From: a virus
Virus record (IMG/VR): IMGVR_UViG_3300027852_000002
Span: 1 to 64,000 of that record
DNA: 64,000 bases
Strand: one strand, 5' to 3'
Of this stretch, positions 10,284 through 37,038 are shown one piece after another (positions within the stretch are counted from its first letter, which is position 1; each line of letters opens with the position of its first letter). The notes beneath the pieces were generated by a model, which saw only the letters and a program-made list of their open reading frames with translations, did not search any database and was not told where the DNA came from. The position numbers were made by a program, and so were the translations under genes.

Positions 10284-10601
10284 ATGGATCGTTACATAGT
10301 CAGCAATACACAACCTGATTTAGTTATTGCTCAAATTGATGGTGATAATAAATTAATATTCTCTCCTATTATTGCTTGGGCTATATCTTTCGGAGAAAGG
10401 AATATACAAGGAGAAAGTCCTAATTCACCATGGCCTGTTACTCCTGCTTGCACTATAAGTGAGTACGAAATATTCGCTATCTATAATCTATGTACATCAG
10501 AATGGTGGCAAACAGAATTAGCATCAGGTAGGGGTTCTGAGGAACTTACTAAATTTTTACTACAAGCAGAACAACAAAAACGAGGAAAAGATAATGGCTG
10601 A
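10284..10601 (+). CDS. hypothetical protein
   Basis: 105-aa ORF in operon orientation. Confidence 0.6.
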   Translation: MDRYIVSNTQPDLVIAQIDGDNKLIFSPIIAWAISFGERNIQGESPNSPWPVTPACTISEYEIFAIYNLCTSEWWQTELASGRGSEELTKFLLQAEQQKRGKDNG

Positions 10602-10911
10602 AGTAAGACACCTACTACATCAAGTAGCTGTAGAATATGTTTGTGATGCCTGTGGTGAAGGAACCATGGTAGCTCAAGAAGACCAGATTATCGCTCCTTC
10701 TCGAAGCCCAGGCCACCTCCATAAATGTACAAACTGTGGCGAACAGCAAACCTTCACTGATGTACGTTATCCAGGTCAGTACTTTGTAAAAGGTCAAGCT
10801 CTGACGCCACCGGGTAAACAAGCTTCAACTGGACAAGCTGCAAATGATGTTATTGAAACGCCAACATCTATTAACCAAAAACCGAAACGGCGTCGTAAGA
10901 GACGGAAATAA
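10594..10911 (+). CDS. hypothetical zinc-ribbon protein with basic tail
   Basis: CDACGEG...CTNCGEQ; C-terminal KPKRRRKRRK; SD GAGGAA upstream. Confidence 0.6.
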   Translation: MAEVRHLLHQVAVEYVCDACGEGTMVAQEDQIIAPSRSPGHLHKCTNCGEQQTFTDVRYPGQYFVKGQALTPPGKQASTGQAANDVIETPTSINQKPKRRRKRRK

Positions 10912-11028
10912 ATACCTGTCCCTTGGTCTAAAGCTTCCTGGTTGTCCTAGACCAAGCAAATCTAAAAGAGAGAACCAGGACTGGATTAATTAAATTGTAT
11001 TATGAAAGTTAAGAGTGTATACACTCTT

Positions 11029-11929
11029 CCTTCCGGTGGTGGAAATTTACCTTTATAGGGAAAAACCGGAACTTTCACCACTCAATTGAACAAGAAGGCA
11101 GGGCCTACTTTCTTTAGAAGGTAGGGATTTAAGGCACCTAGCCCAGTGGGTGTTTGCCGGATAAACTGGGCGCTAATTTCCCCGCTTGAGGGCGATAATA
11201 CAGGGTAACCTGTAAAAAGGAGTGAAGCCTACGCAACTCCGCCCGTAAGGGTCATTTCAAGCAAGCCGAGTCGGAGGGGCATGCCCCTCGCTTCAGTTCC
11301 TGACTGGAGCTAGATTGTGAGCGATTAAGGCACTGTCGGGCGTAATAACCAAAAGCCTGATGCCGTGAGGTATCTGTGCAAGAAAGTAAACCTTTGACGA
11401 TTAAGGGTAGGATTCCTAAGTTCGAGTCGATAGGCGAGAGCATGGTTCCAGTATGACGCGGAGGGGCTGAAAAGTCTATTCCCGTGGAATATCGTTGAGT
11501 AGCCGATAGGTTAAAGACATTCGGTGTGTGGCATTTTCTGACCGCAAGGCTAGAAAACCACCAGAAGGCGCACATCGTGGTAGGTTTACGTTTAGCTCAG
11601 TTGGTAGAGCTTCGGCATATGGAGCCGACTGTCGCAAGTTCAATTCTTGCAACGTCTTGAAAAATGCAAAGACGCCTTCTGGTACTAGGTAAAAACAGCT
11701 TAATTCTAAACGTCCCACGGGATGAATTTAGATGACTCAATGTCGCAAGCGGAGAGTCATTAATATAGAGCCGCACTATCGCTGTTAGCTGCAGAGGTGG
11801 GTAGGCAAAGTATTGAGTAGCCTAGTAGTACGTATGAACCGCCACATACTCAAAAAGGCAGTTGTGTTGTTGTACTGGAGCGAGTTTCCAGTGGATAAGT
11901 TGGCAACTGAGCGGGTAGCACCGTGAAGG
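11029..11929 (+). ncRNA. candidate large structured RNA (GOLLD/ROOL-like or novel); boundaries provisional
   Basis: No same-strand ORF across 1.1 kb. Many hairpins including GNRA loops. Nested complementary pairs at 11029-11038/11919-11929, 11480-11487/11715-11722 and 11560-11570/11673-11683. Contains a tRNA-like module. Confidence 0.45.
11586..11658 (+). tRNA. tRNA-like gene; the hand fold gives anticodon AUG, so isotype and functionality are uncertain
   Basis: 73-nt cloverleaf. D arm is GCTC-AGTTGGTA-GAGC. Anticodon stem is TCGGC/GCCGA with loop ATATGGA. Variable loop is 5 nt. T arm is GCAAG-TTCAATT-CTTGC. The acceptor stem has only 5 bp, with 1:72 and 2:71 mismatched. Confidence 0.6.
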
Positions 11930-12011
11930 TAATCTGACAAAAGCAGCAGCGTTGTGAGTGTAGTCTCAACTCACTGAATTTAGCACTCTAATAACTAATA
12001 CGGAGAACTCT

Positions 12012-12380
12012 GTGAGAAAACATGCAGAAAAACCAAAAAGTGCTCTAGTTTTCCTTGATACCACTTGGTATAAGATCGGACTACGTAACATGGTGTTTGC
12101 TTGGGATGGAGAGAGATGGACACGTTCAACAAGGTTACGCTCTGCAGTTCTCTGGGGATTTGCTAAAGCCCTAGAAGAAACTATCCAAACAAAAACTGCT
12201 CAGCATAATGAAGCTGAGATGGAATTAACAAAAGTTATGAGAACTGCTGCACAACTTGAAAACGATCTGATAGATTTACACCAACAAACAAAGAAAGCTT
12301 TAAGAGATGCTAAAAAAGCTACCGAATTTGAAAATTCAACTGAATCTAAACCTAATCCTTCCCCCCACGACCTCGTTTAG
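12012..12380 (+). CDS. hypothetical protein (coiled-coil C-terminus)
   Basis: GTG start with GGAG 8 nt upstream; 122 aa. Confidence 0.6.
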   Translation: MRKHAEKPKSALVFLDTTWYKIGLRNMVFAWDGERWTRSTRLRSAVLWGFAKALEETIQTKTAQHNEAEMELTKVMRTAAQLENDLIDLHQQTKKALRDAKKATEFENSTESKPNPSPHDLV

Positions 12381-29763: not shown

Positions 29764-32700
29764 TTACTCCTCGTACAGTTCTTCCATTCTCTCCGCCCAT
29801 GGGCGTAATGTATTCTGGAATGGCAGACTATGGGACAACCATCTCTTCGTAGCTTCTTCTTTACCGCCAGCCAGTGCTCGCAGCCCTTGTATTGACCACT
29901 CAGCCGTGGGCCCTAGCACGCTCTCCATTGGGAACTTACCATGTTTCATATCCTGGTCAGCATTCACCGCTATCTCACCTACACCGAGCAGTCCAGACCG
30001 CTCGAAGGCATACCAGGCATGATCCTCTACTTCCCAACCTTCTTTATGAGGATCATCACCGAGCATGTGCTGTAGGGCGTCACGTGCCACCTCAGCCATC
30101 ATCATGCCAGGTATATACATCCCCATCATCATAGCAGGTCGCCAGTCATTCTGTTGCGCAGCCTCGTGATAACCTCTACGGATAATGGTGTCATAGAAGG
30201 AATACATGAAGCCCTTCATGTGGAATACCAACATCCACTTAGGATCTGACGCCCAGGTGGGCCTGGTTGCTGCTGTAGGCCGTAGAATGGCTCCGTCTAC
30301 CCAACGGTTGATGGCTGACTGTACACGGTCCTCACGCTCGATCCTGGCGTCCAGCTGGGTAATAGCGTCGCCTATGTCCTCTCCCTGAAACTTGCGTTCA
30401 GTCAGGACATCACGCTCAGCCAACAGATCAGCGTATTCCTGGTAACTCATTACTTTTACGTTGCCATCATCAGTAAACTGCAAGTCACCTTCACGCAGCC
30501 CCAGCTCATCCAGATACCGCGCACTGTGTTCAGTCGGGTTCTGACTATGAGACTTGAGAAACTCTGTGGCTCCGGCTACACCCATAACCCTGGTAAACCG
30601 AGTGAACTGAGTCAACATGGTTATGTTGAAAAACCACTCATTCATTCTCTGCAGACCACCAGTAAGATACGTACCGCCATACTGCCACTGCAGCGCTTCG
30701 TTGGTAGTGTGCATCTCGATAGTACCCAGAGTCTCAGCCAGCTCACGTGTAGCAGTCTTATCGTCCTTGACCTTAGCTTTAATTTCCTCCCAACCGGCTT
30801 TATACGCATGCCACGCTATCCGCATGTCGCCAGAGCGTACAGCGATGCCCAGAGGGTCTACGAGGCTGGAGAACAGAGCCGTGCTGAGCAGGCGCATGTT
30901 CTGGTATACAATCATGGCTCCCATGGCTTTCTGGAGCTTAGGATCGATGTCAGCCCCTAATACACCCATTTGAGCATCGGTAAATTTCTGCAGCTGTTCC
31001 ATCTGCGCTGGAGTGGCTCCGTGGCTCCTAGCCTTCTGGTACATCTCCTCCATCTTCTCACCATTTTTACCAAAACGCTTAACGAACTCAGCTCGTTTTA
31101 CACTCTGGTTTACATACTGATATAAAGTAGCACCCAGGTCTTTCTGTAAGAACGGTGCTAACTCATCACGGTGGTCATCCAGGAAGTTGAGTGTACGCAG
31201 CTCCTGTGCTCCCATATATGGCCGGTGCATAATCCGTTCACTCATGAAATCCAGATCGCCCTCACCATTATTACGTACAATGGCGGCATAGATGGCGTCA
31301 GCCTTACGCTGCTTCATCTCATCAGTGATCTCTACTCCTTGCATAGCAGGATTCTCCTGCTGAGTACGTTTACCAGTGGCTGGGTCATACGTTACTCGCA
31401 TACGATAGAAATCATCCGGCGCATACTGAATAATCAGCTGTTTGAACCCTTCAGGATCCTGCTGGATAGTATCGATGTCGTAATTACGTGGAAAGTAGTC
31501 TGGTCCACGCGAACCTATCTCTACACCATTACGTTTGGCGTATGCTCGTACTAACCGCATCACTTTCTGAATTGCCTGCTGTGCTCTGCGTATCTCCGGA
31601 TCTTCCGACAACTGACCTCGTTGCAAGCCATCTATAATCTGCTCAGCATAATCAGTAGAACCGTACTGATTGACGATTTCCTGAATATGTTCTTCAAACT
31701 TGCCAGACATACGCCGTACACCTTCGTGCCAGGTTTCCTTGATGCCACCGTAGCCATACACACGCTGGAACTGCTGCACAATTAATCGAACGTGTGGGTT
31801 ACCCATACCTACAAGGTTAGCGTAGCCCTGCCCCAAGATCTTCTGTACTGGGTCGCCGACGGTCTCCAGAACATTCCTCACCTGAGCCGTAGCGTACTGA
31901 AGTTTATTCTGTGTGAGTTGTTTAGGCCGGTGTAGCGTCATGGCTGGGTTGGCTTCTTTACGCAGACGCAGCTGCTGATCCTGCAGCACTTTAAGTATAT
32001 CTCCAGCCTGATCATACTTGGTTACAATCCCCAGGATCTCCCGTATACGGAACAGCAGCTTGGCAAACACACCGTTAGCCTGTGGGCCAAGTTTGATTCG
32101 CCCTTCGCGTAACAGAGCATAGCCGTAGGCCACGGCTTCATCCGGGTTATTACGTATTCGGTCCACAGCTCCAGGAGTACCTGCCAGCTCGCGTTCAAGT
32201 TGGCGCATCACAGGGAATGAAGTAAATGCTCGACTGAGTATTCCCCGCTCTTCAGCATTGAGTAGCGTGTAGAGAGCATCACGAACTGCCTGTTGGTTAC
32301 CCTGGAAGTCGTTGTTGTCCAACATGGATGCTGCCATCAGCGCCTCTTGTGGATCGACATCTTTGCCAACATGTGCCCTGACTCGTTTAGCCACTCTGTC
32401 GAGAACCTTAGTCGCCTTATCAGGAGCCTTGGTTTCTTCAGCTACCTCCTTCATCTTGGCTACAGTCTCAACGGTGGTGTTGGATTTGTTGTCCCACAGA
32501 GAGTTCAGATATCCAGCCACTTTACGATTAGGCATATACCCTTCTTTCTTCATCTGGGCGAACGCTGCTTTGATCGCATCAGCTACTTCCTTGAAGAACT
32601 TATCAACCAGTGAACGTGGGCGCTTATTCATCTCCATCCAGCGAGCGACGTTATCGGCAAACCACTCAGTGTAACCAGTCTCCGACCCAACCAGGTATTC

Positions 32701-35700
32701 CTGCTGCTCCTCAGACATCTCCTGGATATCAATATTATGCCCACGCTCCATACGGTTCATAGCGTAGAAGAAAGGTTTCTTACCTTCCACAGCTGTATGT
32801 AGGTCAGTACGTCCGTGCTTCTTCACCCAGGTCTGGTAAGCCTTGTTCATCGCCTGCTTGGTAGCGTTGTCAGCATTACGCATGAAGTGACCGAACACAG
32901 CGTGTCCAATCTCATGCGAGAGTATTTCAAACCGCTCCACAGCTGTTAGGTCAGGATGAGGATGTACAAATATGTAAGAGGTCTTCCCTTTCGTTGCATG
33001 GAATCCATGAGCCAGGTTACGCTCGATGCGATCCTTCTTATGAGGAGCGACTTTCAGCGCCTCTTCCAAAGTAAGAATCTTGATATTTACATCCAGCCCC
33101 ATCTTCTCAACAATGCGGTCAGCAAACTCCTGCATCTTCTGGTGAGTAGTTGTATCTTCAGCTTTAATCAATTCTCTGATCGTTAGAGGTTCACGAGGCT
33201 TGCGTACGCCTTTTTTTGTACCAGCTTCAGTGATACGTTTAAGCGCGTCATCAAGAGGTTCTACCTTAGCCCCAGAATCTCTCTGCTTAGCTTGTGTTCT
33301 TTTTCCTACAGGTTTCTGTCCCTCAAACCCACGCACAGCTGTTTCTGCTCCACGCATGGTCGGCCCAGCTCCTTCAGCCTGCTCTAACTTAGTTATCTCC
33401 TGACGAAGCTTACGAACTTCTTGTGCCAGCTCTTTTTTAATTTGGTGCTTTTTCAGTGGCATGATACGCCGCTTCGCATCAGGCATTAATTTCAAAAAGG
33501 CTTCATATGCAGCTTGGTTGCTCATAGAGTCAACCTTGTCACGCAGATCTTTTACCTTCTCATGACGAGAGTTCATCCGCTTCGACGCAGCTGTGTCTTC
33601 ATCTACACGCTCACCTTTATTCTTACGCTTTTCAAAACGCTCTTCCTTAATTTCACGTACAGGATCCCCGCGCTCATCACGATATATAGGGGCAAGTGGT
33701 ACAGCGTCAGGCGTACCAGTCTCCGCTCCAGGCTCCTGTTCAATCTCTGACGGATCGAAAACCTGGTAACGTGGGTTGTCAGTCAAACTCTGTACTTGGG
33801 TTGTATCGAGACTACGCTCAATTACTTCACCAGTTTCGATATCCAATACTGAGAAGAAAGGATAAACTCCAGGTGCTGTTTCCGATTGACTCGGAGTCAT
33901 GACATCAGCCAGAGTGAGTTTCGCAGATCCACTCTTATAGACTACGATGCGCTGCTTCACATTGTCAGGAATACTATCAAGATCCACCTGTATATCCTGG
34001 TGCATCCGTAGAGAGTTGAGTCCAGCAATGAGCTGATCACTTACCTGCTGTAACCGTTCTTGGGAATTCACTACACCTTCGATGTCCTGCAGTTTCTGTC
34101 CCTTCTCTTTCTGATACATCATCTGCGACAGACTCATAGCATTGATAATTACCGGCTTACCATCGCCGCGCACACCAACGATGTCATGCTCTTTGAGTTT
34201 AGGCACGCCTTTGGGCGGATCGTAGTAAGGGTTCTCGATATTATCCATGAGCCAGCCTTCTTGACTCTTACTTAAATCTGCAGCTTTACGAGGTTGGCGC
34301 AGTGGCTGCGACACCACTTTATCCTGAAACAGCTTTGTAGACAGGTCACGTGGAGAAAGTGCCACGCGCTGGCTGGAGTCGAACAACTTCCCACGAGGAT
34401 CTAATTCCAACGTAAGGAAGTGTTCGAGAAACTTCTCTGGGTTTTTTGGATCAAATAATTTATTCCAATCCAGAGTGTTATTCGCAATCTTGCGCTCCAG
34501 CTGTTGCTGGCGTTTCGGTAGCGTCTTATTAATATAGTTCTCCAGGTCAACTACGCTTTGTGAATTGTATTGACCTGCGTTACGTGAACGGTAAGCGCTA
34601 GCAGCTTCAATCAGGATATCGTTATCAGACATATCCCGACGTGCGTTCATAGATTTCAGATTAGCGCTGAGTTTATTGAGTTCTGCTTTATCTGGAGATT
34701 CAGATCGTTTCATTCTACCGATACGACCTTGTAATGTTTTACTGTTACGATACAGCGCAGTTTTATGCCCACGGATTAACGCCTGAGTTTGCTCAGCACT
34801 TAGAGCTGTAATATCAAACCCGGAACCTTCCAACACAGCACTGATATCATCTTCACGAGCCTTAGCATCACTCAAAGCTACATTAGCAGCGTTCATAGTA
34901 TCAGGGATGCTACCCAACGCCCGTTGTAACTTCGAAGATTCTTTCTCAAAAAACCCACGAGCATAGTCAGCCACAAACTCATCTTGTTGGAGTTTAGTTT
35001 CGAATGCGCCTTCAGCTTGAACACGGATCTTATCCAACAGTGTGCGTACTTCTGCGCCTTGCCCAATAGCTCCAAACTGCTCAAGACGTCTATGAATCCC
35101 ACGCACTGCGTTCTGCATCATCTCTCTAGCAACAGCTGGGCGTTTACCACGAGCAATCTGTATTGCCTCCCCAGATAATTCTGGCTTGGAATCTTCGAAA
35201 ATACGGTTCACTTCTTCAGCAAACATACCGTGGGCAAAAGCCTCATCAGAACCAGGTACAACCCCTTCTCCAACTTCCTGACTAATATCCAGCCCCATGG
35301 CCTCAGCTGCTTCAGGACTAAAATCATCAGCCATCTCCTGGATATCAACTTCAGACAGAGTTGCCTGACGTTCGATCTCTTTGTCCAGATCGCCCATTAT
35401 CTTGGTAAGTTTTGGATCTACGCCAGCAGGAGCAGGGATACCACCCAATGCACCGAATGGACCACCGGCGATAGCACCAGCAGCGAAGGCATTCATAATT
35501 GCCGACACACCTTCTTCACCAAGAATCTCCTTATTCTGATCTGCCACCTTCATAGCAGTGCGGCTGATAACTTCCTGCATCGCTTCAGTCGAACCTTCTG
35601 TTACAGACTGGATCAACGCTTCTTTGCCCATACGTTTAACAACGCCGTTCTTAATCTCTTTGAGGGCCAGTTCTTCTACTGTCTTACCGCCAAACTTATT

Positions 35701-37038
35701 GAATACACGTAAAACAGGCAGTGCTTCCAATGCACCAGCTACAACTCCACCTCCTAGACTGACCAATGCTAGTTGGCGTAAAGACAGTGACCCACCAAAA
35801 ATACTTTCAGCAGGCTCAGGAATAGTTCCACGTTTATCACGTGCCTCGATCTGCTCACGAGTTAGCGGTGTTTTTGCGTATTGCGATGTGTACCCTGGAA
35901 GTGCGCCTTCTGCTCCACGCCCCTCGCGTTCGAGCTTATACAGATGCTCTTGCCCTTCGTACCGGGGGTGTACAACTCCGCGTCCAGATTTAAGAACAAG
36001 CTCACCGATTGATTCGTCGCTATCGGATAAGTACGTATCGTCGATTTGCCTGCCGAATCGATCAACTTTACCTGACGGGGATGTCGCAAGGATTTCCCCT
36101 TCTGTGAGTTCCCGTAAGTACTGCGCTGCTTCATCTTTCCCCTCCTGTCCGACATCAGCTGTGTTAATATGAGGAACGCGGATTCTATAAGGCGCAGAAC
36201 CATCTTCTGGCTGAAAGTCGAAAGTATCTCCGTCCACCCACTTAACGGCATATCCCTTCACACCGTTACGAGCATCAGTTATGCGTTCACCACGTTGGAT
36301 AGCTTCCCAACCAGCGCGTGTGGCAGGGTCAGTAACAAGAGCAGGCATGATGCCACCTGCTTCCAGCCCCATACCAGTGCCGATAGCTGTTTTGAAAGCA
36401 GTACGACGAATACCTTTACGACTTATCTCTTGAGCGGCAGTCCCAGCTAAACGACGAGTGGCTTCACGGCCAGCTACAGGAAGAGCGCCACGTTGCGCAG
36501 CAGATAGCGCCATGTCCTTGGTCATACGCTTCGCTTGCTTCTTTGCAGTAGTAGCGATGAGTTTCTTACTAATGGAGTGCGCAGCAGTCTTAGCAACTAC
36601 TCCACCAACACCACCACCGGCGATAATCGTAGCGAGGGAAGGAAGGGCTTCGCCCATCTTGGCAGCAACGAAAGATCCAGCATCTTCAAGACTTTCAATA
36701 TCTTCAAGAGTATTGATCTCAGGAGCTACAAAAGAAGCTGCTTCAAAATACTTCTGCGCTCGTTCTGCAGATTCGATAGCAGCATCATCAGCACCAACAA
36801 GTGCTTGAGCGGCACTCTTCACTCCATGATAGGCTCCAGCAGTACCTTCTAAACCAGAACGTAACCCACGTTTAAAAGAAGACTCAGTATCAGCGCTTCT
36901 TATTGGGCCCTCACCAAACTGCTGTACTGGTTCAGTTAGAGCATAAGGGTCATAGCGAGTATCTTCAGCTTCTTCGTAAGCTTTTTGTGAAGCCGCATAC
37001 TCATCCTCAAGCTGATGCTTGAAATCACGAATACCCAC
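29764..37038 (-). CDS. giant virion/ejection-type protein (2424 aa) with an SNase-like segment and a HEIGH zincin motif
   Basis: Single uninterrupted ORF. SNase-like VDGDT...YRIRV...GQEGKDEA...VDRFGRQ at aa ~258-360. HEIGH at aa 1375. Gly-rich hydrophobic stretch near aa 131-155. GTG start. Confidence 0.85.
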   Translation of the reverse strand: MGIRDFKHQLEDEYAASQKAYEEAEDTRYDPYALTEPVQQFGEGPIRSADTESSFKRGLRSGLEGTAGAYHGVKSAAQALVGADDAAIESAERAQKYFEAASFVAPEINTLEDIESLEDAGSFVAAKMGEALPSLATIIAGGGVGGVVAKTAAHSISKKLIATTAKKQAKRMTKDMALSAAQRGALPVAGREATRRLAGTAAQEISRKGIRRTAFKTAIGTGMGLEAGGIMPALVTDPATRAGWEAIQRGERITDARNGVKGYAVKWVDGDTFDFQPEDGSAPYRIRVPHINTADVGQEGKDEAAQYLRELTEGEILATSPSGKVDRFGRQIDDTYLSDSDESIGELVLKSGRGVVHPRYEGQEHLYKLEREGRGAEGALPGYTSQYAKTPLTREQIEARDKRGTIPEPAESIFGGSLSLRQLALVSLGGGVVAGALEALPVLRVFNKFGGKTVEELALKEIKNGVVKRMGKEALIQSVTEGSTEAMQEVISRTAMKVADQNKEILGEEGVSAIMNAFAAGAIAGGPFGALGGIPAPAGVDPKLTKIMGDLDKEIERQATLSEVDIQEMADDFSPEAAEAMGLDISQEVGEGVVPGSDEAFAHGMFAEEVNRIFEDSKPELSGEAIQIARGKRPAVAREMMQNAVRGIHRRLEQFGAIGQGAEVRTLLDKIRVQAEGAFETKLQQDEFVADYARGFFEKESSKLQRALGSIPDTMNAANVALSDAKAREDDISAVLEGSGFDITALSAEQTQALIRGHKTALYRNSKTLQGRIGRMKRSESPDKAELNKLSANLKSMNARRDMSDNDILIEAASAYRSRNAGQYNSQSVVDLENYINKTLPKRQQQLERKIANNTLDWNKLFDPKNPEKFLEHFLTLELDPRGKLFDSSQRVALSPRDLSTKLFQDKVVSQPLRQPRKAADLSKSQEGWLMDNIENPYYDPPKGVPKLKEHDIVGVRGDGKPVIINAMSLSQMMYQKEKGQKLQDIEGVVNSQERLQQVSDQLIAGLNSLRMHQDIQVDLDSIPDNVKQRIVVYKSGSAKLTLADVMTPSQSETAPGVYPFFSVLDIETGEVIERSLDTTQVQSLTDNPRYQVFDPSEIEQEPGAETGTPDAVPLAPIYRDERGDPVREIKEERFEKRKNKGERVDEDTAASKRMNSRHEKVKDLRDKVDSMSNQAAYEAFLKLMPDAKRRIMPLKKHQIKKELAQEVRKLRQEITKLEQAEGAGPTMRGAETAVRGFEGQKPVGKRTQAKQRDSGAKVEPLDDALKRITEAGTKKGVRKPREPLTIRELIKAEDTTTHQKMQEFADRIVEKMGLDVNIKILTLEEALKVAPHKKDRIERNLAHGFHATKGKTSYIFVHPHPDLTAVERFEILSHEIGHAVFGHFMRNADNATKQAMNKAYQTWVKKHGRTDLHTAVEGKKPFFYAMNRMERGHNIDIQEMSEEQQEYLVGSETGYTEWFADNVARWMEMNKRPRSLVDKFFKEVADAIKAAFAQMKKEGYMPNRKVAGYLNSLWDNKSNTTVETVAKMKEVAEETKAPDKATKVLDRVAKRVRAHVGKDVDPQEALMAASMLDNNDFQGNQQAVRDALYTLLNAEERGILSRAFTSFPVMRQLERELAGTPGAVDRIRNNPDEAVAYGYALLREGRIKLGPQANGVFAKLLFRIREILGIVTKYDQAGDILKVLQDQQLRLRKEANPAMTLHRPKQLTQNKLQYATAQVRNVLETVGDPVQKILGQGYANLVGMGNPHVRLIVQQFQRVYGYGGIKETWHEGVRRMSGKFEEHIQEIVNQYGSTDYAEQIIDGLQRGQLSEDPEIRRAQQAIQKVMRLVRAYAKRNGVEIGSRGPDYFPRNYDIDTIQQDPEGFKQLIIQYAPDDFYRMRVTYDPATGKRTQQENPAMQGVEITDEMKQRKADAIYAAIVRNNGEGDLDFMSERIMHRPYMGAQELRTLNFLDDHRDELAPFLQKDLGATLYQYVNQSVKRAEFVKRFGKNGEKMEEMYQKARSHGATPAQMEQLQKFTDAQMGVLGADIDPKLQKAMGAMIVYQNMRLLSTALFSSLVDPLGIAVRSGDMRIAWHAYKAGWEEIKAKVKDDKTATRELAETLGTIEMHTTNEALQWQYGGTYLTGGLQRMNEWFFNITMLTQFTRFTRVMGVAGATEFLKSHSQNPTEHSARYLDELGLREGDLQFTDDGNVKVMSYQEYADLLAERDVLTERKFQGEDIGDAITQLDARIEREDRVQSAINRWVDGAILRPTAATRPTWASDPKWMLVFHMKGFMYSFYDTIIRRGYHEAAQQNDWRPAMMMGMYIPGMMMAEVARDALQHMLGDDPHKEGWEVEDHAWYAFERSGLLGVGEIAVNADQDMKHGKFPMESVLGPTAEWSIQGLRALAGGKEEATKRWLSHSLPFQNTLRPWAERMEELYEE

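Follow-up and report, generated by a model that had tools for sequence, protein, structure and literature searches.

A divergent GOLLD RNA with an acceptor-truncated tRNA-like module in its linker, encoded among the replication genes of an uncultivated phage

In a window of 64,000 nucleotides (nt) of viral DNA (positions 1 to 64,000 of IMG/VR record IMGVR_UViG_3300027852_000002), the interval 10912-12011 lies between two + strand open reading frames (ORFs), one of 105 amino acids (aa; 10594-10911) and one of 122 aa that starts with GTG (12012-12380). We conclude with high confidence that this interval encodes a + strand GOLLD RNA of ~850 nt, which carries a tRNA-shaped module in its linker, probably as a fixed mimic, and is predicted to form a cage. 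GOLLD RNAs occur in phages and prophages, are ~800 nt long, and combine a conserved 3' domain with a variable 5' domain and a variable linker. The GOLLD RNA known as env-38 assembles into an RNA-only 14-mer cage whose caps are made of the 5' domains (nt 1-420) and whose ring is made of the 3' domains; the linker (nt 497-538) is disordered and faces the cage interior, and the linkers of GOLLD RNAs sometimes hold tRNAs (PMC12286853). The original prediction for the interval, made from the sequence alone, had proposed a giant structured RNA that was either a member of GOLLD or ROOL or a new large RNA. Only the first of these options holds: the RNA is a genuine, divergent member of GOLLD rather than a new class, and the tRNA-like insert in its linker is a known variant feature of the family.

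The assignment is carried in the first place by the 3' domain. All of Rfam model RF02032 (positions 1-416 of 416) aligns to 11521-11972 on the + strand with a score of 124.2 bits, at E=6.5e-34 when 1.5 kb is searched and 2.8e-32 when the whole 64-kb window is. The pseudoknot of this domain is intact, with UACUAGGU (11683-90) pairing with GCCUAGUA (11820-27) and UG with CG, and two of the hairpins listed in the original prediction (11732-38/11754-60 and 11874-79/11887-92) proved to be consensus helices of the Rfam family. Since the curated gathering score for RF02032 is 150 bits, a default Rfam scan misses the RNA: at gathering thresholds only a tRNA is reported (11588-11655), and the GOLLD match surfaces when an E-value threshold is used. 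The shortfall in score has three sources: 73 nt are inserted in the linker and 24 nt in a late loop, and one hairpin is deleted. The 73-nt insert is the tRNA-like element, placed in what the model treats as an unstructured linker, and the deleted hairpin is one of two small adjacent ones at about model positions 250-266 (the P21a/P21b pair). The other Rfam models that the original prediction had named for comparison gave nothing: there was no match to ROOL, group I/II introns, transfer-messenger RNA (tmRNA) or further Rfam families at E up to 10 in 10700-12200, no match to a family other than GOLLD and tRNA at E up to 0.01 in the whole window, and no tmRNA was called by ARAGORN in the window.

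Related loci were collected from several sources. A scan of IMG/VR with a motif of the 3' domain gave 76 GOLLD loci, of which a single one, L004, has an embedded tRNA-like element; L004 is also the nearest relative of the window's RNA among the 76. The Kretsch supplementary alignment led to the Caulobacter phages phiCbK (JX163858) and Ccr34 (KY555147), in both of which a 'tRNA-Gly TCC' is annotated inside GOLLD. Metagenome and genome contigs were scanned with a pattern that ran from the D-loop through the T-loop to the GCAAAG motif behind the linker, and at least 53 or so of the pattern-matched loci have GOLLD around the match by nhmmer. Our comparison with tRNA-bearing GOLLD RNAs covers phiCbK, Ccr34, L004 and about 50 metagenome loci; Mycobacterium/Mycolicibacterium GOLLD RNAs are also known to embed a tRNA-Phe or a pseudo-tRNA. 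Ten tRNA-bearing loci were run against Rfam; all reach the GOLLD cut-off (150-231 bits) and all lie in tRNA arrays. In further searches, blastn of the interval against the phage collection returned only tRNA-like matches of 60 nt, the pattern GCAAAGACNCCT...GCTTAAT gave only chance matches in IMG/VR apart from L004, and a metagenome pattern taken from the loop insert specific to the window and L004 had no match. We also note that GOLLD RNAs with a tRNA insert are common in metagenomes (L094-L212 from metagenomes and L221, L247, L282 and L322 from genomes, together with L004 and L092).

The 5' half of the RNA points to the same family and, within it, to the tRNA-bearing loci. By nhmmer, the 5' region of the window's RNA matches those of the metagenome loci L165 (E=8e-9, window ~11194-11520), L176 (6.5e-7) and L100 (2.7e-6), whereas neither single-sequence nor profile nhmmer found a match to the 5' domains of 60 classical IMG/VR GOLLD loci. 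Homology is therefore seen solely against the tRNA-bearing loci, with the commoner type of 5' domain unmatched at the sequence level. These matched loci pass the Rfam cut-off for GOLLD; the 3' domain of L165, the nearest by this measure, scores 164.7 bits. Good alignment of the 5' domain is limited to about 11190-11270 and 11390-11520, and the stretch between them (~11270-11390) is idiosyncratic. We built a covariance model, R1, from the last ~140 nt of the 5' domain as aligned from 31 other loci, with the window excluded; the consensus fold of this alignment has 20 pairs, 18 of which show compensatory changes. Run against the 64-kb window, R1 gave a single match (11390-11521, + strand, 42.1 bits, E=2.2e-9, model positions 1-140), and this match adjoins that of RF02032 at 11521. 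When 62 classical IMG/VR GOLLD loci were searched, R1 matched L004 and L073 only, which indicates that a 5' domain ending in this way is particular to the clade. Covariation, which the original prediction had named as a way to check its proposal, is seen in several helices across the related loci, among them the two GNRA hairpins that it had picked out by eye (11201-12 and 11242-51; Table 1). As a side observation, L073 (4946-5089, - strand) is a classical IMG/VR GOLLD locus without an embedded tRNA, yet its 5' domain ends in the R1 type (35 bits, E=1.7e-6); as described for env-38, there is a tRNA-Met directly upstream.

The module is enclosed by a helix that closes the linker and that the original prediction had listed as an 11-bp long-range pair (11560-70/11673-83). 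All 11 pairs are perfect in the window, and the helix has at least 7 contiguous base pairs (bp) in 48 of the 49 unique related loci, in 33 variants, among the matches listed; its mean length of 9.6 bp compares with 6.15 +/- 0.23 when loci are permuted. env-38, which was compared through an 816-nt copy extracted from the published PDF (the full RNA has 833 nt), has a helix at the equivalent linker position, UGAUAGAC/GUCUAUCA.

A further pairing joins the linker to the 5' domain. The loop AAGCCTAC (11225-32) is complementary to the linker flank GTAGGTTT (11580-87), with 8 pairs intact in the window, and among the matches listed a pairing of at least 5 bp is present in 37 of 37 loci, where it is made by 18 distinct motif pairs; these include CCTAC/GTAGG, CCCAC/GTGGG, CCTAAC/GTTAGG, CCTTAGC/GCTAAGG, TCCAC/GTGGA, CGTACC/GGTACG, TCTAC/GTAGA, CCACT/AGTGG, CCAAC/GTTGG and CCTCAATAC/GTATTGGGG. 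The mean is 5.9 bp as against 4.9 +/- 0.14 for permuted loci. The acceptor stem is left free at its top because the 5' flank of the module, with nominal tRNA positions 1-2, is engaged with the loop of the 5' domain. Judged from sequence, the pairing could form either within one chain or between chains. In env-38 a possible equivalent is GGUUU in the 5' loop (UAAGGUUUAG) with AAACC after the 3' strand of P13, and the pairing may already be a known pseudoknot of the published GOLLD consensus. The L20 region of the 3' domain was also considered as a partner of the linker flank and was rejected, as it does not covary with the flank, unlike the 5'-domain loop.

The tRNA-like module of the original prediction sits exactly in the variable linker of the GOLLD RNA. 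It is the sole ARAGORN call in the 64-kb window, in which no free tRNA genes were found, and the Rfam tRNA match to it covers model positions 3-68 only. Its core is a cloverleaf with complete D, anticodon and T arms and a canonical elbow, and it keeps the conserved bases U8, A9, A14, G18G19 in the D-loop, a TTCAATT T-loop, U33 and a purine at 37. The acceptor stem, in turn, has five of its seven pairs (3:70 to 7:66), with T-T at 1:72 and T-C at 2:71, and there is no CCA, the tail reading TGAAAAA. The anticodon loop is AUAUGGA, giving the anticodon AUG (A34). Bacterial tRNA-His has a GUG anticodon and a G-1:C73 identity pair; in the module both position -1 and position 73 are T, and the pair is absent. 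Thus, among the features of a functional tRNA, the cloverleaf with its D-/T-loop elbow is present, and the seven-pair acceptor with CCA and the anticodon and identity elements of a known isoacceptor are lacking.

The embedded elements of L004 and phiCbK have the same acceptor truncation as that of the window. How general it is in the clade was assessed on 43 unique embedded elements and, for comparison, 316 unique free tRNAs of the loci that contain them (among the matches listed). All seven acceptor pairs are present in 7% of the embedded elements (3/43) and in 81% of the free tRNAs. Pairing at 1:72 is found in 30% of embedded and 91% of free molecules, at 2:71 in 44% and 96%, and at 3:70 in 56% and 97%; at these top three positions the embedded elements pair at a rate near the 37.5% expected for random bases with G-U allowed. 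An NCCA tail is encoded by 94% of the 316 free tRNAs and by 0% of the 43 embedded elements. The anticodon loops of the clade are mostly of Asn (GUU, AUU) and Lys (UUU) types, and most members keep a CUNNNAA anticodon loop. In the searchable literature we found no paper that joins GOLLD with 'acceptor stem'; Weinberg 2009 and Morgado 2020 lie outside that search.

With these models in hand, the extent of the RNA is smaller than originally predicted: the GOLLD RNA proper occupies about 850 nt of the 1.1-kb interval, from ~11127 (possibly 11086-11104) to 11972. The 1.1 kb is indeed free of same-strand genes, with no + strand ORF of at least 60 aa between 10911 and 12012; those that do occur there are chance ORFs of 37-54 aa. 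Both antisense ORFs that the original prediction gave as the only ones are present as described (11252-11575, 107 aa; 11476-11718, 80 aa); neither has a Pfam match and both are situated under covarying RNA helices, and a protein-coding role for the interval was rejected on these grounds. The stretch is also richer in G+C than its surroundings, as had been noticed (0.45-0.51 over 11000-11900 versus 0.34-0.44 in the flanks). Every hairpin and long-range complement that had been listed exists, the 9-bp hairpin with one G-U pair and 11029-38/11919-29 with one bulge, and the accompanying warning about chance complements was well placed. Perfect inverted repeats of at least 8 nt number 18; dinucleotide-shuffled sequence has 9.6 +/- 4.0, and 10 of 200 shuffled versions reach the observed number. 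Raw complementarity is thus only weakly above chance, so that the case for a structured RNA must be made on different grounds. For 11086-11975, the z-score of the folding energy is -4.6 (20 shuffles only).

Three of the listed pairings are not supported when set against the conserved structure. The hairpin 11813-19/11847-53, which has no counterpart in L004, would tie up GAGUA, a conserved single-stranded element; the long-range pair 11480-87/11715-22 competes with a conserved local R1 helix and a hairpin loop; and 11029-38/11919-29, which would link the leader to the loop insert, is absent in L004, the nearest relative. The leader itself, between the upstream ORF and the conserved RNA, has no homology to any related locus and may contain a promoter or the 5' end of the RNA. 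The features are collected in Table 1.

Table 1. Coordinates of the GOLLD RNA and its parts in the window
Feature	Position	Strand	Basis or remark
Leader between upstream ORF and conserved RNA	10912-11126	+	Hairpins 10922-30/10949-57 and 11104-12/11117-25; palindrome ~11007-11024
GOLLD 5' domain, type common to tRNA-bearing GOLLD RNAs	11127-11520	+	nhmmer and covarying helices; domain start near TTTAAGGCACC
GNRA hairpin ACAGG-GTAA-CCTGT	11200-11213	+	Covaries: GTGTG-GTGA-CACAC, ATGGG-GTAA-CCCAT, GGTC-GCAA-GATC in related loci
Hairpin GGAGT/ACTCC, loop 11225-11232 = AAGCCTAC	11219-11240	+	Stem covaries; loop pairs with linker flank 11580-11587
GNRA hairpin GCCC-GTAA-GGGT	11241-11252	+	Covaries: GCCA-GCAA-TGGT, GCCG-GAAA-CGGT, GCTA-GTAA-TAGT
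3'-terminal third of 5' domain	11390-11521	+	AAGGGTAG motif, two covarying hairpins, GAGTAGCC-GATA-GG hairpin; R1 match
GOLLD conserved 3' domain	11521-11972	+	Full-length RF02032 match
Linker-closing helix, 5' strand (ACCAGAAGGCG)	11560-11570	+	In internal loop of first 3'-domain hairpin; pairs with 11673-11683
Linker flank GTAGGTTT	11580-11587	+	Pairs with 5'-domain loop 11225-11232; overlaps nominal tRNA positions 1-2
tRNA-like module in linker	11586-11658	+	ARAGORN 'tRNA-His (AUG)'; Rfam tRNA 11588-11655, 48.9 bits
Linker-closing helix, 3' strand (CGCCTTCTGGT)	11673-11683	+	Directly after conserved GCAAAGAC
Pseudoknot, 5' strand (UG, then UACUAGGU)	11680-11690	+	Pseudoknot columns of Rfam alignment; partners 11820-11827, 11831-11832
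Pseudoknot, 3' strand (GCCUAGUA ... CG)	11820-11832	+	Rfam alignment; conserved GAGUA (11815-19) just before

To set the RNA beside known systems, we compared it with the solved GOLLD structures, those of env-38 (PDB 9MEE, 14-mer) and Streptococcus agalactiae (9L0R, 12-mer). It shares with them the full 3'-domain architecture including the pseudoknot, a large separate 5' domain and a phage origin, and it likewise has a variable linker between the domains, closed by a helix that is also present in env-38. Like the S. agalactiae RNA, which forms a 12-mer although it lacks P21b among other elements (PMC12990946), it is missing one P21 hairpin. The RNA departs from the RF02032 norm in scoring 124 bits (<150), in its 24-nt late-loop insert and in having no flanking tRNA array. 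Its resemblance to the tRNA-bearing GOLLD RNAs extends to the placement of the module at the identical point of the linker, between ...GCACRUC-NNN-GURGG and AAANGCAAAGNC, the truncated acceptor, the linker-closing helix, the loop-linker pairing and the homologous 5' domain; unlike those RNAs (150-231 bits, tRNA arrays), it lies below the cut-off, and it is unique in its AUG anticodon and in the middle part of its 5' domain. ROOL is alike in outline, being another large phage-associated cage RNA with an interior linker, but is unrelated in sequence and fold. The 3' tRNA-like structures of plant viruses and tmRNA similarly carry a tRNA-shaped mimic within a larger RNA; those, however, keep a chargeable acceptor/CCA end, whereas the module in the window has no such end and is internal. 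We also observed that the small hairpins of the P21a/P21b region have been lost independently, the second being absent in the window and the first in L165, and that the remaining P21-region loop of the window, UUAGCUG, retains the self-complementary AGCU/GC expected for the symmetric L21a kissing loop of env-38.

Several other accounts of the locus can be considered. If the interval were an ordinary intergenic spacer with a normal phage tRNA-His gene, and the surrounding complementarity a matter of chance, then calls from both ARAGORN and the Rfam tRNA model and an inverted-repeat count only weakly above that of shuffled sequence would fit. Both flanks of the tRNA, however, match GOLLD-specific models (E=1e-32 and 2e-9), the helix that encloses it covaries across 48 loci, and the tRNA itself has a five-pair acceptor, A34 instead of a GUG anticodon, no G-1/C73 pair and no CCA; the GOLLD match, the R1 match and the covarying linker-closing helix refute this account, which is scarcely credible. 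If the locus were instead a GOLLD pseudogene, decayed until its RNA could neither fold nor function, this would account for a score below threshold, for the lost hairpin and for the lack of tRNAs nearby, and it would agree with the distance between 124 bits and the 150-231 bits of ten other tRNA-bearing members and with the absence of the RNA from the closest phage relatives. We nevertheless regard decay as very unlikely: the match runs through the whole model (416 positions), the window keeps the pseudoknot intact and likewise the helix that closes the linker (11 perfect pairs) and the loop-linker pairing (8 pairs), the folding energy has z = -4.6, and the loss of a single hairpin is also seen in L165 (the other P21 hairpin), which passes the cut-off, and in the S. 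agalactiae RNA (P21b; PMC12990946).

The module might also be a genuine tRNA precursor within a GOLLD RNA, stored in the cage and freed on demand by RNase P and RNase Z. A review that describes a tRNA-Phe in J13/15 of Mycolicibacterium GOLLD has proposed such 'inhibited storage' (PMC12990946), and the canonical cloverleaf core in the window, the CUNNNAA anticodon loop retained by most members of the clade and the three of 43 embedded elements with all seven acceptor pairs are in keeping with it. Against it, positions 1-3 pair with 70-72 in 30-56% of embedded elements as opposed to 91-97% of free tRNAs, CCA is found in 0/43 of them and is encoded by 94% of the free tRNAs nearby, the covarying pairing with the 5' domain takes up the 5' flank together with nominal positions 1-2, and the anticodon in the window is AUG. 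In M. aubagnense GOLLD, moreover, the embedded element has been called a pseudo-tRNA, and its own expression was undetected (PMC6582537). The missing acceptor end and CCA, together with the engagement of the 5' flank in a covarying pairing, argue against a stored tRNA and for a fixed mimic, and we consider storage unlikely.

The reading of the interval as a GOLLD RNA with a fixed tRNA mimic and a predicted cage has to be set against a number of points that weigh the other way. The RF02032 score of 124 bits is under the curated cut-off of 150 bits, and the window has no free tRNA genes, whereas GOLLD loci usually lie in tRNA arrays. With one P21a/P21b hairpin absent and 24 nt inserted in the late loop, the oligomeric state cannot be inferred and cage formation is uncertain. 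Two terminal mismatches alone are no proof that RNase P or RNase Z cannot process the module, and the 43 embedded elements, having been retrieved with one sequence pattern, sample one clade and are in many cases related, so the acceptor-truncation result may fail for other GOLLD clades. Finally, a consensus search of the + strand of the leader found no sigma-70-like promoter or intrinsic terminator, and the ends of the transcript are therefore not fixed.

The surroundings of the RNA are those of a phage replication module. The window is matched by an ENA metagenome contig (ERZ27237542 k141_2819089, 70 kb), and the neighbours of the RNA are genes for a PD-(D/E)XK exonuclease, an SNF2 helicase, DNA polymerase A and a primase-like protein. 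The last of these is 34% identical to its counterpart in the Pseudomonas phages KPP25 and phiR18, and the phage lineage that hosts the RNA is a distant relative of the KPP25 group. In the five contigs whose helicases are most similar (59-63% identity), there is no gap of the size of the interval, and neither the hidden Markov model of the GOLLD 3' domain nor R1 has a match, which indicates that GOLLD is not a conserved feature of the phage lineage. No IMG/VR relatives of the downstream ORF or of the helicase were found, and blastn of the late genes returned nothing.

Some further observations concern the neighbourhood and the related phages. In L091, a related phage contig whose helicase is 59% identical, a gene with a match to the Pfam family Gad2 (PF26128; 2647-3591) lies between exonuclease and helicase, roughly at the GOLLD site. 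The ORF directly upstream of the RNA in the window (10594-10911, + strand) matches PHROG 9369 (unknown function, E=8.7e-11) and has weak zinc-ribbon-like Pfam matches under the cut-offs, and the late-gene block contains an ORF of 2424 aa (29764-37038, - strand). In phiCbK, a match to the permuted tmRNA model RF04321 (L092 716-1034, - strand, equivalent to about 104215-104533 of JX163858; 71.4 bits, cut-off 47) lies ~500 nt upstream of the GOLLD RNA on the opposite strand, in a stretch without an annotated feature.

A working model of such an RNA can be sketched. The ~850-nt RNA would be transcribed from the + strand with the early or replication genes of this uncultivated phage. By homology with the env-38 and S. 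agalactiae structures, it is predicted to fold without protein and to assemble into a closed homo-oligomeric cage, with the 5' domains as caps and the 3' domains as the ring, and the linker, hence one tRNA-like module per subunit, would point to the cage interior. The module itself would be a built-in tRNA mimic held on the scaffold rather than a precursor to be excised and charged, as its sequence suggests. Our working guess is that the role of the cage during lytic growth is to display or sequester surfaces of tRNA shape for a partner that binds tRNA. In its broader form, in which the insert of this large GOLLD clade is a permanently attached mimic and the cage a sponge or trap for such a partner, the idea is speculative and we hold it only tentatively, as a rather unlikely one. 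Each cage would then show 10-14 tRNA-shaped decoys on its inner wall, tied down by the loop-linker pairing, and possible partners would include host anticodon nucleases or other tRNA-targeting defences, modification enzymes and ribosomal sites. The Asn and Lys anticodon types of the clade fit a decoy for anticodon-directed enzymes; they could equally reflect shared ancestry.

GOLLD RNAs are among the largest non-coding RNAs of bacteria and phages, and although the cage structure was solved in 2025, their function is still unknown. The locus described here is a divergent addition to the family, overlooked at the standard Rfam threshold and without tRNA genes nearby. The two comparative results, the loss of the acceptor end and CCA and the pairing of the flank, bear on the purpose of the 'tRNAs' found in GOLLD linkers. 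Should the cage indeed act as a sponge, its presence in a phage without true tRNA genes in the window would mean that GOLLD function is independent of a tRNA array.

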